Origin: an uncultured Clostridia bacterium
GTDB taxonomy: Bacteria; Bacillota; Clostridia; TANB77; CAG-508
Assembly (NCBI GenBank): GCA_944391755.1
Contig: CALXUT010000012.1
Coordinates: forward strand, 9,727 to 73,726
Reading direction: 5' to 3'
Length of the DNA: 64,000 bases
In this document: piece by piece, positions 58,243 to 63,295 of the stretch
Layout: every line of letters begins with the position of its first letter
Numbering within the stretch: position 1 is the first letter of the stretch
The notes under the pieces: model-generated
Database searches by the model: none
The model's input: only the letters and a program-made list of their open reading frames with translations
Told to the model about the DNA's origin: nothing
Made by a program: the position numbers and the translations under genes

Positions 58243-60066
58243 ATGAATAACCAAAAAATAAGAAATATAGCAATAATCGCACACGTAGATCATGGAAAAA
58301 CAACATTAGTAGATGCTTTGTTAAAACAAAGTCATGTTTTTAGAGATAATGAACAAGTACAAGAAAGAGTAATGGATTCCAATGATCAAGAAAAAGAAAG
58401 AGGAATTACCATTTTAGCAAAAAATACAGCAGTTATGTATAATGATGTAAAAATAAATATAGTAGATACACCTGGACATGCTGATTTTGGTGGAGAAGTA
58501 GAAAGAGTATTAAAAACTGTAGATGGTGTATTATTATTGGTAGATGCTTTTGAAGGTGCAATGCCACAAACAAGAGAAGTTTTGAAAAAATCATTAGCAT
58601 TAAATTTAAAACCGATTGTTGTTATTAATAAAATTGATAGACCAGGAGCAGAACCACAAAAAGTTGTAGACCAAGTAATGGAATTATTTATCGAATTAGA
58701 TGCAAATGATGATCAACTAGATTTTCCAGTATTATATGCATCTGCTAAAAATGGAACTTGTAAAATGAATTTAAACGATCCAGATGGAGATTTTACCTGT
58801 TTATTTGAAACCATAATTAATACCATAAAAGCTCCAGATTGTGATGAAGAAGGACCAGCACAAATGCTAGTGTCTAATATAGATTATGATGATTATGTTG
58901 GAAGAATTGCTGTTGGAAGAATAGAAAGAGGAACTATTAAACTTGGAATGCCTGTAAGTATATGTGAGAGTGATAACAAAATTTCACAAGGGAAAGTTGC
59001 AAAAGTATATACACATATGGGATTAAAAAAAGTAGAAGTTGAAGAAGCGAAAGCAGGAGATATCATAGAAATAGCAGGTATACCAAATATTCATATTGGA
59101 GATACCATATGTGATTTTAACCATCCAGAAAAAATACCATTTGTGGATATAGATGAACCAACAGTATCTATGACATTTAGTGTCAATAATGGACCATTTG
59201 CTGGAAGAGAAGGGCAATTTATTACATCAAGACATTTAAGAGATAGATTATTTAAAGAATTAGATAGAAATGTAAGTTTAAGAGTAAAAGAAACAGATTC
59301 TCCAGATGCATTTGAAGTATCTGGAAGAGGAGAGCTACATTTATCAGTTTTAATAGAAACAATGAGAAGAGAAGGGTATGAACTATTGGTATCAAGACCA
59401 AAAGTAATTATAAAAGAAATAGATGGTGTAAAATGCGAACCAATTGAGAGACTTGTTGTCAATGTACCAGATGATTGTGTTGGAAATGTTATAGAAAAAT
59501 TAGGAAAAAGAAAAGCTGAAATGGTAAATATGGAACCAGCAGAACAAGGACATACAAAAATAGAATTTAAAATACCAGCAAGAGGATTAATTGGATATAG
59601 AACAGAATTTCTTACAGATACAAAAGGAGAAGGGGTTATGAATCATATATTTGATTCATATGAACCATATAAAGGAGATGTTGTTTCAAGAGTAAGGGGA
59701 ACAATTGTCGCTTTTGAATCTGGAACATCTATTACATATGGCCTATATAATGCACAAGATAAAGGCGAACTATTTATAGGACCTGGGGTAGAAGTGTATG
59801 AAGGAATGATTGTTGGATTAAATTCAAGAGGAGAAGATTTAGCCATCAATGTATGTAAAGAAAAACATTTAACAAATACAAGAGCTTCAGGTTCAGATGA
59901 TGCATTGCGTTTAGTTCCACCAATTCAAATGTCATTGGAAAAAGCGATAGAATTTATCCAAGATGACGAATTAGTTGAAGTAACTCCTAAATCAATAAGG
60001 CTAAGAAAAAAAATACTAGATAATAAGGAAAGAGAAAGAGCGGCTAGAAATGCAATGAAACAATAA
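58243..60066 (+). CDS. typA: Translational GTPase TypA/BipA
   Basis: AIIAHVDHGKTTL, DTPGHADFGGEVER and NKIDRP. 607 aa. Confidence 0.93.
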   Translation: MNNQKIRNIAIIAHVDHGKTTLVDALLKQSHVFRDNEQVQERVMDSNDQEKERGITILAKNTAVMYNDVKINIVDTPGHADFGGEVERVLKTVDGVLLLVDAFEGAMPQTREVLKKSLALNLKPIVVINKIDRPGAEPQKVVDQVMELFIELDANDDQLDFPVLYASAKNGTCKMNLNDPDGDFTCLFETIINTIKAPDCDEEGPAQMLVSNIDYDDYVGRIAVGRIERGTIKLGMPVSICESDNKISQGKVAKVYTHMGLKKVEVEEAKAGDIIEIAGIPNIHIGDTICDFNHPEKIPFVDIDEPTVSMTFSVNNGPFAGREGQFITSRHLRDRLFKELDRNVSLRVKETDSPDAFEVSGRGELHLSVLIETMRREGYELLVSRPKVIIKEIDGVKCEPIERLVVNVPDDCVGNVIEKLGKRKAEMVNMEPAEQGHTKIEFKIPARGLIGYRTEFLTDTKGEGVMNHIFDSYEPYKGDVVSRVRGTIVAFESGTSITYGLYNAQDKGELFIGPGVEVYEGMIVGLNSRGEDLAINVCKEKHLTNTRASGSDDALRLVPPIQMSLEKAIEFIQDDELVEVTPKSIRLRKKILDNKERERAARNAMKQ

Positions 60067-60077
60067 AGGAGAAAAAT

Positions 60078-60368
60078 ATGTATAAGGATTTTTATCAAAG
60101 TAATAGAAATTATAAAAAGAATTTTGCAAAATTAATTGATATAGAATATCAACAAAGAAAAAGACAAGAAGAAAAGGTCGAATCAGAAGATACAACTCTT
60201 AGAAAAGAAATCCATGTATTTATTGCCAAAAATGCAACAAGGACAAAAAGTAAAGAACAATTATTAAGTTTATTAGAAGAACAATTTTCAGATCCTAAGT
60301 ATGAAAAATATCATCAATATTTTGAACGATGGGTTTCTGATGCTGTTAGAGGGGATGAAGAAAGATAA
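60078..60368 (+). CDS. Hypothetical small protein
   Basis: 96-aa ORF with an SD (AAAGGAGAAAAATATG). No family was recognised. Confidence 0.45.
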   Translation: MYKDFYQSNRNYKKNFAKLIDIEYQQRKRQEEKVESEDTTLRKEIHVFIAKNATRTKSKEQLLSLLEEQFSDPKYEKYHQYFERWVSDAVRGDEER

Positions 60369-60374
60369 CAAAAA

Positions 60375-60962
60375 ATGAATAAAAAAGAATTAGAAAAAAT
60401 AAAACAAAAAGCATTAGAAGAACATATACCAATCATCATGGATGACACCTTAGAAGTTGTAGATAAAGTATTAACAGAGGTAAAACCAAAAAGAATATTA
60501 GAAATAGGGACAGCAGTAGGATATTCTGCAATTTGCTTTTCAGAATACCTACAAGAAGGTGGAAAAATCGATACAATAGAAAGAGAGAAAGACAGAATAG
60601 AAGAAGCAAAAAGAAATATAGAAAAAGTCGGAGTTGCAGATAAAATAACTATATATGAAGGAGATGCAGTAGAGATATTACCAACTTTAAATAATCAATA
60701 TGATGTTGTATTTATTGATGCTGCAAAAGGAAAGTATCCATTTTTCTTAAAAGAGGCATTAAGAATGATTAATAAAAATGGAATGATATTAGCAGATAAT
60801 ATCTTATATAAAGGCTATGTTATGAGTGATTATAATAAGCATAAACAAAGAACAGCAGTCAGAAATTTAAGAGAATATGTGAAAGAAGTAACCGAAAATC
60901 CGAATATTGAAACAGAAATTTTAGAAGTAGGAGATGGACTAGCCATTAGTAAAATTTTATAA
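60375..60962 (+). CDS. SAM-dependent O-methyltransferase, class I family 3 (YrrM/TrmR-like)
   Basis: ILEIGTAVGYSA, VFIDAAKGKY and ILADNILYKG. It precedes a U32 peptidase gene, as yrrM-yrrN-yrrO do in Bacillus. Confidence 0.8.
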   Translation: MNKKELEKIKQKALEEHIPIIMDDTLEVVDKVLTEVKPKRILEIGTAVGYSAICFSEYLQEGGKIDTIEREKDRIEEAKRNIEKVGVADKITIYEGDAVEILPTLNNQYDVVFIDAAKGKYPFFLKEALRMINKNGMILADNILYKGYVMSDYNKHKQRTAVRNLREYVKEVTENPNIETEILEVGDGLAISKIL

Positions 60963-60965
60963 AAA

Positions 60966-61011
60966 CTAAAACACGCACTTAGAAATTATTCTTAGTGCGT
61001 GTTTTAGTTAT
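60966..61011. terminator. Bidirectional terminator shared by the methyltransferase and the RSH gene
   Basis: aaaactaaaacacgcactaag-aaattattc-ttagtgcgtgttttagtt. Confidence 0.7.
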
Positions 61012-61023
61012 GTTGCGAAAAGG

Positions 61024-61875
61024 TTAGAAGGTTTTGACTCTGTGAGTCAGAACCAGCGGTTCTTCTAAACCGATAAAGTCATAGACTTTACCATTAGAAA
61101 GGCCATACCCGGGAATGTGAACCCGAGTCTTATCGAATGTTATTTTTGGATATTTCAGGTCCTTATACCTACCATGCTCTGCAGTACCATCAACGGCTTC
61201 TAGATGCATTCCAAAAGTCCGAAGCTGGATTTCAAAGCAATACCCCTTTGTAGGAGAACGAAAAGTGATATGCAAAGACTGATATCCGTTTTTCTTGGGT
61301 GAAAAGACATAATCTTTAACACCATAAAGGTACGAACTGGAAATCTCACTTTTCTCCGGAATAAATAGTTTTGAGCGCTCAGGAGCATCTTCTGCCATTG
61401 TGTTTGATGGCTCATCTGCCTCACAAAGGATTAATCCTTTATCGACAAAGAACTGAATGATTGCATTCGCCGTGTGGTAAAGTTTTGATACTAACTCAGG
61501 AGAAGAGTTGGTATCTTCTCCGAAGACCAAAATCCGATAAGCAAATGCGTCTCTGAACAAATCAAGAGACTGCTTATCATTCAACAGCTTACACAACTTC
61601 CTTTCGGTAGAAATCAAAGATTTCCGGCGCCCATCTATGCAGTAATGCAAATCAGGTAATGTTTCATCAAGAACCTTATAAAGGTTCTCAAAAGTTCTTC
61701 TGACGATTCTGAGAAATTGCCTGTCTGAAATCAGATCATTATAACTTCTCAAAGCTGTTGCATGTGCGATGCTTTCGAAATCCTCTCCTTTCCGCAATTC
61801 AGCCTCATAGAGGCTTAGGATGTCTGGAATACTTTTTCCCTGATAAATGAATTCAGGGAGTCTGCTTTCAATCAT
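61024..61875 (-). CDS. Stand-alone RelA/SpoT-homolog synthetase-domain protein (small alarmone synthetase-like nucleotide pyrophosphokinase), atypical GC
   Basis: 283 aa. The motifs occur in order: GRRKSLISTERKL, DAFAYRILV, KNGYQSLHITF, and FEIQLRTFGMHLEAVDGTAEHGRYK. GC is visibly about 40%, against about 28-30% in the neighbours, and it uses codons such as ctc, ccc, cgg and gcc. It has its own promoter. Confidence 0.8.
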   Translation of the reverse strand: MIESRLPEFIYQGKSIPDILSLYEAELRKGEDFESIAHATALRSYNDLISDRQFLRIVRRTFENLYKVLDETLPDLHYCIDGRRKSLISTERKLCKLLNDKQSLDLFRDAFAYRILVFGEDTNSSPELVSKLYHTANAIIQFFVDKGLILCEADEPSNTMAEDAPERSKLFIPEKSEISSSYLYGVKDYVFSPKKNGYQSLHITFRSPTKGYCFEIQLRTFGMHLEAVDGTAEHGRYKDLKYPKITFDKTRVHIPGYGLSNGKVYDFIGLEEPLVLTHRVKTF

Positions 61876-61910: not shown

Positions 61911-61939
61911 ATTATATCACATTATATAAGAATAGTCAA
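61911..61939 (-). promoter_or_regulatory. Consensus promoter of the RSH gene
   Basis: On the minus strand: TTGACT (61939-61934), a 17-nt spacer, then TATAAT (61916-61911). Confidence 0.65.
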
Positions 61940-61967: not shown

Positions 61968-61995
61968 TTGACAAATTCGAGATTTCTGGTAAAAT
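61968..61995 (+). promoter_or_regulatory. Promoter of the U32 peptidase/rlmN unit, divergent from the RSH promoter
   Basis: TTGACA (61968-61973), a 16-nt spacer ending in TGG (extended -10), then TAAAAT (61990-61995). Confidence 0.6.
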
Positions 61996-62065: not shown

Positions 62066-63295
62066 ATGAAAGAAGTAGAATTATTAGCACCAGCAGGTTC
62101 ATTTGAAAATGCAAAAATAGAATTTGTGAATGGAGCGGATGCAGTATAGAGTGGAACCTCATCATTATCATTAAGAACAAGAGCAGACATGGGAGATAAT
62201 GATTTAATCGATACCATAAAATATGCACATAGTATAGGAAAAAAAGTATATGTAACATTAAACATATTTGCATGGGATGAAAAATATGAAGAAATCATAG
62301 AAATGGCAAAAAAATTAGAAGAATTAAAACCTGATGGAATCATTGCAGCAGATGGAGGCGTTATTGATGTATTAAAACAATATGCACCAAGTATTCCTAT
62401 TAATGTAAGTACACAAGCCAATATTGTAAGTTTGCATGCATGCAATTTTTGGCACAGAAATGGTGCCAAAAGAATGATAATGGCAAGAGAAATGAATAAG
62501 GAACAATTAAAATACATCATGGAAAATAAACCAGAAGATATGGAAATCGAAATCTTTATCCATGGTGCTATATGTTTTGCTTATTCTGGAAGATGTTTTT
62601 TAAGTGATTTTCTAGCATGTAGAAGTGCCAATTTAGGAGATTGTGCACAAAGTTGTAGATGGTCCTATAATTTATATGCAGAAGAGAGAAACAATCCAGG
62701 ACAATTGATGCCAATTGAAACAAATGAATATGGAACAAGTATATTTTCATCAAAAGATTTATGTTTAATAAAAGAAATACCAGAAATCATAGAAATGGGT
62801 GTGGATAGCTTAAAAATAGAGGGAAGATTAAAAACAGAATATTATGTTGCAAGTATTGTAAATGTTTATAGAAATGCAATTGATGATTATAAAAAAGACC
62901 CAGAACATTATGAATATACAAAATACTTAAAAGAAATTGAAAAAATAAAAACAAGAGAATTAACAACTTTTTATTTTAATGACAGGAAAAATACAGATAT
63001 CCAAGAATATGATGGACATCAATATAATGAAAAATATCAATTTGGAGGAAAAGTGGTAGAATATGATGGAGATAAAGCCATTATCAATATACGAAACAGA
63101 TTACAAGTGGGAGATACAATGGAAATCATCGTACCACATAGGTTGGAACCAGTAGAATTTAAAATTGATAAAATGTGGGATATAGAAACAAATCAAGAAA
63201 TTGATGTTGTAAACCCAGGAGTAAAAGACCAAAAAGTAAAAATGATATTACCAATAAAGTGTGAAAAAGATTGGATAATTAGGAGAAAAAAATGA
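62066..63295 (+). pseudogene. Peptidase U32 (YrrN/YrrO-like) interrupted by an in-frame TAG at 62147-62149
   Basis: ATG at 62066 after GAAAGGAAATAAAAT. MKEVELLAPAGSFENAKIEFVNGADAV*SGTSSLSLRTRADMGDNDLIDTIKYAHSIGKKVYVTLNIF is continuous and in frame with ORF 62189..63295. Homologs have an aromatic residue at the stop position (GADAV[YF]xGG). Confidence 0.75.

Follow-up and report, generated by a model that had tools for sequence, protein, structure and literature searches.

The RelA/SpoT-homologue (RSH) enzymes include the long Rel proteins, which exceed 700 residues and possess an HD hydrolase and TGS/ACT domains, and the small alarmone synthetases (SAS). RelQ and RelP, the housekeeping SAS of Firmicutes, contain a helical C-terminal tetramer bundle (PMC11782079) and are not toxic, whereas a conserved toxin-antitoxin-like arrangement is an indicator of SAS toxicity (Jimmy et al., PMC7229694). 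The toxic enzymes (toxSAS), such as FaRel2, CapRel, PhRel/PhRel2, FaRel, and Tas1/Apk2, come with an antitoxin or immunity gene or with a fused pseudo-zinc-finger domain. Adenosine 3′-pyrophosphokinases exhibit RYT, GxN, and YH at the syn2, syn3, and syn4 sites, whereas the guanosine enzymes have AxR, SxH, and (I/L)R, respectively (PMC12226406). Here we examined an open reading frame (ORF) at positions 61024..61875 on the minus strand of a 64-kb stretch of DNA (64,000 nucleotides, hereafter the window) from contig CALXUT010000012.1 of an uncultured Clostridia bacterium. The ORF starts with ATG and encodes a stand-alone RSH synthetase of 283 residues followed by a stop codon. Judged from its sequence, the protein is probably a monofunctional, non-toxic (p)ppGpp synthetase of an uncharacterized SAS subfamily, with a gene that would be vertically inherited and a codon usage that would be kept by selection. 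An initial annotation had taken the gene for an orphan, horizontally acquired, toxSAS-like insertion and had offered three options for its product: a non-toxic alarmone synthetase, a self-inhibited enzyme of the fused-antitoxin type, or an enzyme controlled in trans.

The complete RelA/SpoT synthetase motif set reported in the initial annotation was read directly from the translation, and the catalytic and nucleotide-binding residues are invariant across a 31-sequence family alignment. Strand β1 and the next helix carry the ATP-phosphate motif G82-R83-R84-K85-SLI-S89-TER-K93 (61597..61632, on the minus strand as are all of the protein features given here), of which R83, K85, and K93 are invariant. 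The Mg2+/adenine motif D109-A-F-A-Y-R114 (61534..61551; D109 and R114 invariant) is followed by the acceptor-site loop K187-D-Y...P193-K194-K-N-G-Y198-Q-S200-L-H202 (61270..61317), which has the long-RSH pattern and invariant residues, and by the catalytic motif E215-I-Q-L-R219-T...M223-H...A227...H234-GR-Y237-K238 (61162..61233), as defined by the alignments to Rel and within the family. Pfam model PF04607 (RelA_SpoT) matched the protein with 56.8 bits (cut-off 27, E 3.2e-15) over residues 185–239; only this C-terminal half of the model was aligned because an insertion of ∼36 residues splits the RSH domain. By profile alignment, residues 65–136 correspond to residues 219–281 of Bacillus subtilis Rel and residues 187–251 to Rel 296–360, so that residues 137–186 (61318..61467) face just 14 Rel residues (282–295). 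This family-specific segment, recognized by its conservation and the alignment to Rel, includes G147-x2-L-C-E152-A-D-P and P173-x2-S176, the first of which is kept in the 31-member alignment along with the N-terminal helices and a C-terminal I-P-G-Y-G...D-F-x-G-L stretch. Scans of the 283 residues against Pfam and NCBIfam recovered the synthetase region only, with no HD hydrolase and no TGS/ACT domain.

An AlphaFold2 model generated with the same alignment (predicted local distance difference test 92.7, predicted template-modeling score 0.89) has four helices at the N terminus, then the RSH sheet, and three short strands at the C terminus. The helical region (residues 1–75, 61651..61875), defined from the secondary structure of the model and family conservation, forms most of the ∼76 residues before strand β1, and its last part aligns with the helices preceding the synthetase sheet of long Rel (from query residue ∼62–65). 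The protein extends ∼45 residues beyond the YK motif, and the three-strand β element at its end (residues 252–283, 61027..61122; I-P-G-Y-G and D266-F-x-G-L) is likewise supported by the model and the family alignment. The N-terminal extension, long insertion, and ∼45-residue tail that had been noted initially are thus all real features of the protein.

The synthetase (SYNTH) domains of long Rel (B. subtilis 8acu/6yxa, Thermus thermophilus 6s2t, and S. equisimilis 1vj7) were the best matches by both sequence and fold. A family profile run against the Protein Data Bank (PDB) sequences matched long Rel at 6e-24 to 7.6e-19 (8fr8, M. smegmatis RelA), RelP at 3.5e-14, RelQ at 6e-11, and FaRel2 at 8e-3, with bit scores of 78–88, 51–56, and 45 for the first three, respectively; a single-sequence search similarly gave E 6e-9 for Rel versus ∼3e-3 for RelP/RelQ. 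The top 38 Foldseek PDB matches to the model were all RSH enzymes, with values of 1e-6 to 7e-5 for long Rel, 2e-4 for RelQ, 1e-3 for an exported Streptomyces SAS (8vx3), 7.6e-3 for FaRel2, and 1.6e-2 for Tas1; the Streptomyces enzyme and Tas1 had no sequence match, and RelP was outside the top Foldseek PDB matches listed. CapRel was matched neither by the family profile against the PDB sequences nor by Foldseek against the PDB, and a viral structure library held nothing close to the model. The initial suspicion that RelQ and RelP are not the nearest relatives was therefore correct, but the toxSAS enzymes are not the nearest either, FaRel2 and Tas1 being far weaker matches than long Rel. The x-x-K-D tetrad of the protein (G-V-K-D) is closer to the RXKD of bifunctional Rel than to the EXDD of RelA, a distinction attributed to Sajish et al.

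The acceptor was read as a guanosine nucleotide because the three signature sites contain A112-Y-R114 (syn2), S200-L-H202 (syn3), and L218-R219 (syn4), which are of the guanosine and not the adenosine type (PMC12226406), and because the acceptor loop resembles that of long Rel. In the predicted mechanism, the helix with R83, K85, S89, and K93, together with D109 and its Mg2+, would grip the donor ATP; the equivalent FaRel2 residues R64, K66, S70, and K74 hold the ATP triphosphate (PMC11782079). The loop with K187, K194, N196, Y198, and H202 would grip GDP or GTP, and E215 would promote transfer of the β,γ-pyrophosphate of ATP to the 3′-OH of the guanosine nucleotide to yield (p)ppGpp. Since the protein has no hydrolase or ribosome-sensing domain, its output would be set by expression or by ligands bound to accessory elements, with the family-specific N-terminal helices, the 36-residue insertion, and the C-terminal β element as the candidate sites. 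Transcription would start from a strong, conserved sigma-A-type promoter, and the ORF would be translated through codons that the host hardly uses; such codons could throttle translation or could sustain it when the abundant tRNA isoacceptors are uncharged.

The gene is no orphan. Within 5.8 billion clustered proteins we found 93 full-length homologues of ∼280–320 residues, all from metagenomes or metagenome-assembled genomes (MAGs), and PF04607 was precomputed on 93 of the 93. A family-profile hidden Markov model search of 1.84 billion representatives at 50% identity yielded 222 proteins at E ≤ 1e-30, nearly all of 270–360 residues and matched end to end; these 222 clusters make up a family that is sizeable and distinct. 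Fifteen family representatives were looked up by cluster, and the sole source name among the homologues was "hypothetical protein [Clostridia bacterium]".

The RSH gene lies between two genes of the plus strand, a convergent Methyltransf_3 O-methyltransferase (YrrM/TrmR-like, 60375..60962) that follows BipA and a divergent U32 peptidase-family gene (TrhP-like, 62066..63295). The initial annotation had proposed that the RSH gene breaks the local gene order by insertion. On the contrary, this slot, defined as divergent from U32 and/or convergent with the methyltransferase, is occupied in lineages with 88% to 39% identity to the window protein. Eighteen metagenome contigs encode an identical protein in this context, and same-slot homologues occur in lineage L120 (88%), L020/L021 (62%), L018 (58%), L007 (49%), L023 (an NCBI Clostridia MAG; 48%), L010 (48%), L013 (42%), and L025 (a GTDB representative MAG; 41%). 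The last of these was the only true family locus from a scan of GTDB genomes with the whole-family alignment, which used the universal RSH motif PKxNGYQSL and was swamped by long RSH. A metagenome scan with a family-specific N-terminal pattern, based on a 7-sequence alignment (an 11-sequence version being too diverse), retrieved eleven more human-gut loci with 42–48% identity, and the RSH gene was convergent with the methyltransferase in 9 of the 9 that had an identifiable neighbor. L108 (39% identity) is the one examined lineage in which the methyltransferase does not adjoin the RSH gene; the methyltransferase is gone there and the divergent U32 pairing is retained. In total, the slot is occupied in more than 15 independent metagenome or MAG lineages, comprising every lineage examinable down to 39% identity, and only branches at 28–29% identity sit outside it.

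Identity to the window ranks the lineages identically for all four proteins compared (RSH, methyltransferase, U32, and BipA), and neighbor-joining trees of RSH, methyltransferase, and BipA have their main clades in common. The Spearman correlations between distance matrices were 0.43 for RSH versus methyltransferase and 0.77 for RSH versus BipA. On these grounds, the gene has most likely been inherited mainly vertically, in one slot, within a clade of uncultured gut Clostridia of ∼28% GC, and is not a recent foreign insertion. One local recombinant was observed: L116 has an RSH allele of the L110/L112 type and a methyltransferase that groups with that of L111, which places a break-point between the convergent genes.

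The distant branches have contexts of their own. One of them, in L014 (637-8000) and L105 (786-8643), lies directly downstream of the gene for threonyl-tRNA synthetase (ThrRS), with an RSH GC content at third codon positions (GC3) of 0.36–0.38 versus 0.14–0.19 for its neighbors. It is followed by genes for a protein of 772–778 residues that has no Pfam match, an SMC_N/AAA_23 ATPase, and a class-II aminoacyl-tRNA synthetase, and a HipA_C kinase gene is nearby in L105. The other, in L016 (414-9733), encodes 318 residues with native GC3, is flanked by acylphosphatase and metallophosphatase genes, and is ∼5–7 kb from genes for polyphosphate kinase and a Ppx-GppA family protein, a context loosely tied to (p)ppGpp and polyphosphate metabolism.

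The initial annotation rightly noted an elevated GC content, which is 0.40 over 61000-61800 versus 0.26–0.33 in the flanks. The GC3 of the RSH ORF is 0.39 compared with 0.10–0.18 for all 40 other window ORFs of at least 200 residues; since GC1 and GC2 are ordinary, the anomaly is almost wholly synonymous. Relative to the host, the codon shares are 0.12 versus 0.67 for TTA, 0.39 versus 0.85 for AGA, 0.10 versus 0.49 for ATA, and 0.17 versus 0.93 for CAA, and the A-ending codons preferred by the host are avoided in every codon class. Five CGG, five CTG, and three CTC codons occur in the ORF, and these triplets are near-absent from the 40 other genes. This trait is inherited: in 8 of 8 syntenic lineages, the RSH GC3 is above that of the flanking genes (0.17–0.45 versus 0.07–0.13; Fisher p 7e-6 to 9e-40) and CGN arginine codons are enriched in hosts that use AGA for ∼85% of their arginines. 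The invariant Arg84, for example, is encoded by CGG, CGC, CGG, CGT, CGA, CGT, CGG, and CGT in the eight lineages and never by AGA. Apart from a small residue within the closest trio, shared four-fold third positions agree between lineages only as composition predicts; the synonymous sites have therefore turned over completely while the bias persisted. Within the ORF the excess is even from one end to the other, and it does not extend past the boundaries, with native values in every lineage for the first 60 U32 codons (GC3 0.08–0.15), the last 60 methyltransferase codons (0.07–0.17), and the promoter gap (GC 0.18–0.24).

These data bear on the proposal that the gene was recently acquired and that its GC content reflects the donor. 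A GC3 of 0.39 and the use of CGG, CTG, and CTC, which are almost unused by the host, speak in its favor. The same slot and the same excess are, however, found in lineages whose RSH proteins are only 39–62% identical and whose four-fold sites are saturated, the RSH tree broadly agrees with the flanking-gene trees, and all of the family members recovered reside in a 26–34% GC context, with no higher-GC donor lineage seen. A GC3 excess that is inherited despite saturated synonymous sites and limited to one ORF carries no signature of recent transfer, and we regard such a transfer as hardly credible. In the same manner, the outcome that the initial annotation named as adverse to its own view, occupancy of the same site in relatives with native GC, was seen for the site but not for the composition, which is inherited in 8 of 8 lineages and not native.

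An equilibrium bias confined to the ORF favors selection acting on the coding sequence or mRNA over both an un-ameliorated transfer and a regional mutational process. We infer from this pattern that the non-host codon usage is kept by selection and is not the leftover of a recent transfer. Several other origins were examined and rejected. A regional mutational bias or GC-biased conversion tract is weakened by the exact end of the excess at the ORF boundaries; an overlapping gene or dual coding is at odds with the unconserved synonymous sites, and no conserved ORF was found in an alternative frame; and strand orientation does not suffice, given that normal GC3 values are seen in five further window ORFs on the lagging strand. 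A sensor of tRNA modification, with rare codons in the boxes read by xo5U34-tRNAs, whose modification the neighboring TrhP/TrmR enzymes provide, was discarded on the basis that A-ending codons are avoided in all classes and that G-ending codons are not enriched in these boxes.

A more specific, tentative idea is that the codon usage is a regulatory device, in which codons read by scarce tRNAs (CGG, CTG, CTC, and C- or G-ending codons) would make the enzyme level obtained from a strong constitutive promoter track the supply or charging of isoacceptors; we consider this doubtful. If it were true, the gene would be a translational sensor that links tRNA status to (p)ppGpp synthesis with no need for a ribosome-binding domain, and a steady turnover among many acceptable rare codons would help to explain the high synonymous rate described below. 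According to the selective-charging theory of tRNA isoacceptors by Elf and colleagues (2003), rare codons should remain translatable when amino acids run short; as a hypothesis, this behavior would suit a starvation-signaling enzyme.

The rates of divergence were compared between the window and its sister lineage L120. Their nucleotide identity is 92–98% for U32, RlmN, and PP2C and 64–84% for the RSH ORF. At four-fold sites, the differences are 0.567 for RSH, 0.226 for the methyltransferase, 0.128 for U32, 0.253 for RlmN, 0.151 for PP2C, and 0.045 for BipA, and the corresponding amino-acid differences are 12.4%, 5.6%, 1.9%, 1.8%, 0.8%, and 0.2%, respectively. The synonymous divergence of RSH between the sister lineages is ∼3–8 times that of its neighbors, and over 78 lineage pairs its protein distance is ∼3 times that of the methyltransferase. 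The sister alleles have a non-synonymous divergence (dN) of 0.08 with saturated synonymous divergence (dS), so the protein is under purifying selection. Among close alleles (78–91% identity) the substitutions are even, affecting 31–44% of positions per region, and a search for a hypervariable sensor segment found none. Four other assemblies carry the window-type allele without a single nucleotide difference. We offer three explanations for the fast rate, unranked. Rare codons may turn over constantly while G/C sites mutate readily in an AT-biased genome; balancing selection may preserve old alleles that recombination moves; or the local mutation rate may be raised, since the gene runs head-on to replication from a strong conserved promoter.

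Two further observations concern patterns of divergence in this region. The window and L120 meet at a sharp mosaic boundary: they are 99–100% identical from 54.7 to 59.9 kb, identity is only 85–97% to the right, starting with the methyltransferase and reaching at least 64 kb, and a recombination break-point is located at the 3′ end of BipA or in the small ORF that follows (∼59900-60400). A second fast-diverging segment near RSH occurs just past the right end of the window, in a gene for a PrkC-like Ser/Thr kinase (L001 4755-6746 versus L120 669-2657); the part near its 3′ end (L001 4800-5200, presumably extracellular PASTA) has 61–74% nucleotide identity versus ∼92–96% for its neighbors and a four-fold difference of 0.36.

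Synonymous and non-synonymous changes that accumulate faster than in the neighbors, combined with atypical codon usage and family-specific elements flanking the catalytic core, could also suit a toxic SAS or anti-phage effector that is self-inhibited by an N- or C-terminal element, as in CapRel, or controlled in trans, and that fires on infection to stop growth. In line with this idea, PADLOC-DB gave a sole, weak match, to candidate PDC-S33 (E 4e-7), and a 26%-identical protein covering window residues 6–238 is encoded on MT835872.1 (12143-12883), a 16-kb unannotated contig from human feces labeled "Bacteriophage sp."; it is the only near-full-length match in the phage collection, on a contig that is viral by label. 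The PADLOC match, however, spans residues 183–224, which is the universal RSH core, with no full-length defense match, and the weak match in PHROGs was limited to the same core. Searches of 50,697 phage and 72,556 plasmid records and of the IMG/VR contigs yielded no close relatives, and a viral-contig scan with the family-specific N-terminal alignment retrieved nothing. As the initial annotation had noted, neither gap flanking the RSH gene contains an antitoxin-size ORF. We extended this result to the syntenic loci, where gaps of 146–212 bp upstream and 48–90 bp downstream hold no co-directional partner and no conserved ORF, so that there is no conserved partner gene, nor room for one, in more than 15 loci; this situation fits the finding of Jimmy et al. 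on the arrangement of toxic SAS. The slot is fixed amid translation and housekeeping genes, not in a defense island or prophage. The ∼32–45 residues after the core, in which no Pfam domain was detected, are too few for a pseudo-zinc-finger domain of the CapRel type (ATfaRel2 has 73 residues; PMC11782079). In addition, CapRel was not retrieved by Foldseek, FaRel2 and Tas1 score far below Rel and RelQ, the substitutions among close alleles are even, with no hypervariable sensor-like segment, and dN/dS between sister alleles is low. We therefore judge a toxic or defensive role to be quite improbable. Of the options first put forward, the non-toxic alarmone synthetase is favored and the fused-antitoxin type is not.

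A different acceptor was also considered, in that the enzyme might be a regulated pyrophosphokinase of the tRNA 3′-CCA end, tied to neighboring tRNA-modification genes, or a (pp)pApp synthetase. The conserved neighbors resemble the tRNA U34 hydroxylase TrhP and the methyltransferase TrmR, RlmN is next door to them, and the protein shares ordered N-terminal helices with FaRel2. The branch of the family directly downstream of ThrRS may be compared with FaRel2, for which tRNA-Thr and tRNA-Gly are reported as targets (PMC11245113). Against this view, the P-K-x-N-G-Y-Q-S-x-H loop and the syn2 and syn4 signatures are those of long Rel and the guanosine enzymes, FaRel2 and Tas1 rank last among the RSH matches by sequence and fold, the RSH gene is on the strand opposite to both neighbors and hence shares no operon with them, the rare codons are not concentrated in the xo5U34-tRNA boxes, and translation genes are common as neighbors in small genomes. 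An acceptor other than GDP or GTP thus seems unlikely.

Several points weigh against a vertically inherited, non-toxic (p)ppGpp synthetase with selected codons, the reading that we prefer. The acceptor signatures are correlative, and swapping them failed to switch specificity (PMC12226406). The ordered N-terminal helices resemble, in principle, the N-terminus with which FaRel2 anchors tRNA (PMC11782079). The evolution of the gene, with a four-fold difference of 0.57 versus 0.13–0.25 for its neighbors and a ∼3-fold protein distance, is faster than is usual for housekeeping genes and more typical of genes engaged in conflict. The GC3 is native in L108 (0.14) and L016 (0.19), making the codon trait less than family-wide. 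Lastly, the ancestor of the clade could itself have received the gene by an ancient transfer, which would be compatible with the preferred reading.

The signals around the gene are well defined. Its own consensus promoter, also recognized initially, consists of TTGACT, a 17-nucleotide spacer, and TATAAT preceded by an extended TG-n (61911..61939, minus strand); it is near-consensus, and its −35 box and extended −10 are conserved in related lineages (L021, L018, and L023, and partly in L007 and L108). A second promoter for U32 on the plus strand (61968-61995) is arranged back to back with it. Each has 11 of 12 matches and an extended −10 TG, their −35 boxes are ∼29 bp apart, and the arrangement is kept in related lineages; the two genes could share regulation. 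Between the stop codons of the convergent RSH and methyltransferase genes, a hairpin terminator with 21-nucleotide arms that are 95% complementary occupies 60964..61009. An Rfam scan found no RNA family at the RSH locus, and no second RSH gene is present in the 64-kb window.

The U32 gene begins with an ATG at 62066, and an in-frame TAG (62147-62149) interrupts it in the window; four other same-species assemblies have Tyr-Cys (GADAVYCG) there. Compared with those assemblies, the window has seven substitutions in 41 bp of U32 (62110, 62121, 62126, 62129, 62143, 62149, and 62150), and L001, the copy that was fully compared, has no further differences from the window over 5.6 kb beyond this cluster. 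The cluster could have arisen as an error of assembly or consensus calling, or it could be a pseudogenizing event specific to this strain. On the other side, 60078-60368 holds a 96-residue ORF that has no Pfam family, between BipA and the methyltransferase. Counterparts of 80–105 residues exist in L001, L007, L013, and L020, and the ORF is absent from the sister lineages L120/L121, in which the BipA-methyltransferase gap is 45 bp; it thus represents a ∼300-bp insertion or deletion between near-identical genomes.

If the proposed function is correct, the family, a common one among uncultured low-GC gut Clostridia, would add an uncharacterized branch to the small alarmone synthetases, and its accessory elements (the N-terminal helices, the 36-residue insertion, and the C-terminal β element) probably carry undescribed regulatory logic. 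The results also advise caution in genome scans, since a three-fold GC3 excess in a single gene mimics horizontal transfer and is here an inherited, ORF-limited trait; its survival through complete synonymous turnover calls for selection or a locus-specific process as the explanation. Were the codon usage regulatory, it would amount to a new wiring of stringent-type signaling to translation capacity.

Compared with described systems, the family has an RSH fold, a small size, and fast evolution in common with the toxSAS enzymes, as well as accessory elements that surround the core, but differs from them in having neither an antitoxin or immunity gene nor a fused pseudo-zinc-finger domain, in its guanosine-type signatures, and in its lack of close relatives among the phage, plasmid, and viral contigs searched. 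Like cloRel, a Firmicutes-restricted SAS subgroup named by Atkinson et al. in 2011 (PMC3153485), it is limited to Firmicutes/Clostridia, with all members found here coming from uncultured sources; the two may or may not be the same group. It resembles RelQ and RelP (5ded, 6ewz, and 6fgk) in being single-domain, chromosomal, free of an antitoxin, and presumably a non-toxic (p)ppGpp synthetase. These enzymes are not its nearest relatives, however, and in place of their C-terminal helical bundle the model ends in three short strands from residue 252; the family also has a longer ordered N-terminal region and an insertion of its own. With long Rel it shares the K-D-Y...P-K-x-N-G-Y-Q-S-L-H loop and the E-I-Q-x-R-T..M-H..A-E.G.A.H..Y-K catalytic stretch, while it lacks the hydrolase and TGS/ACT domains and adds the ∼36-residue insertion between the second motif and the acceptor loop as well as the short C-terminal β element. 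The class of architecture (SAS) is therefore ordinary and the architecture of this subfamily is uncharacterized so far, and the family appears to derive from the synthetase domain of a long Rel and not from RelQ or RelP.

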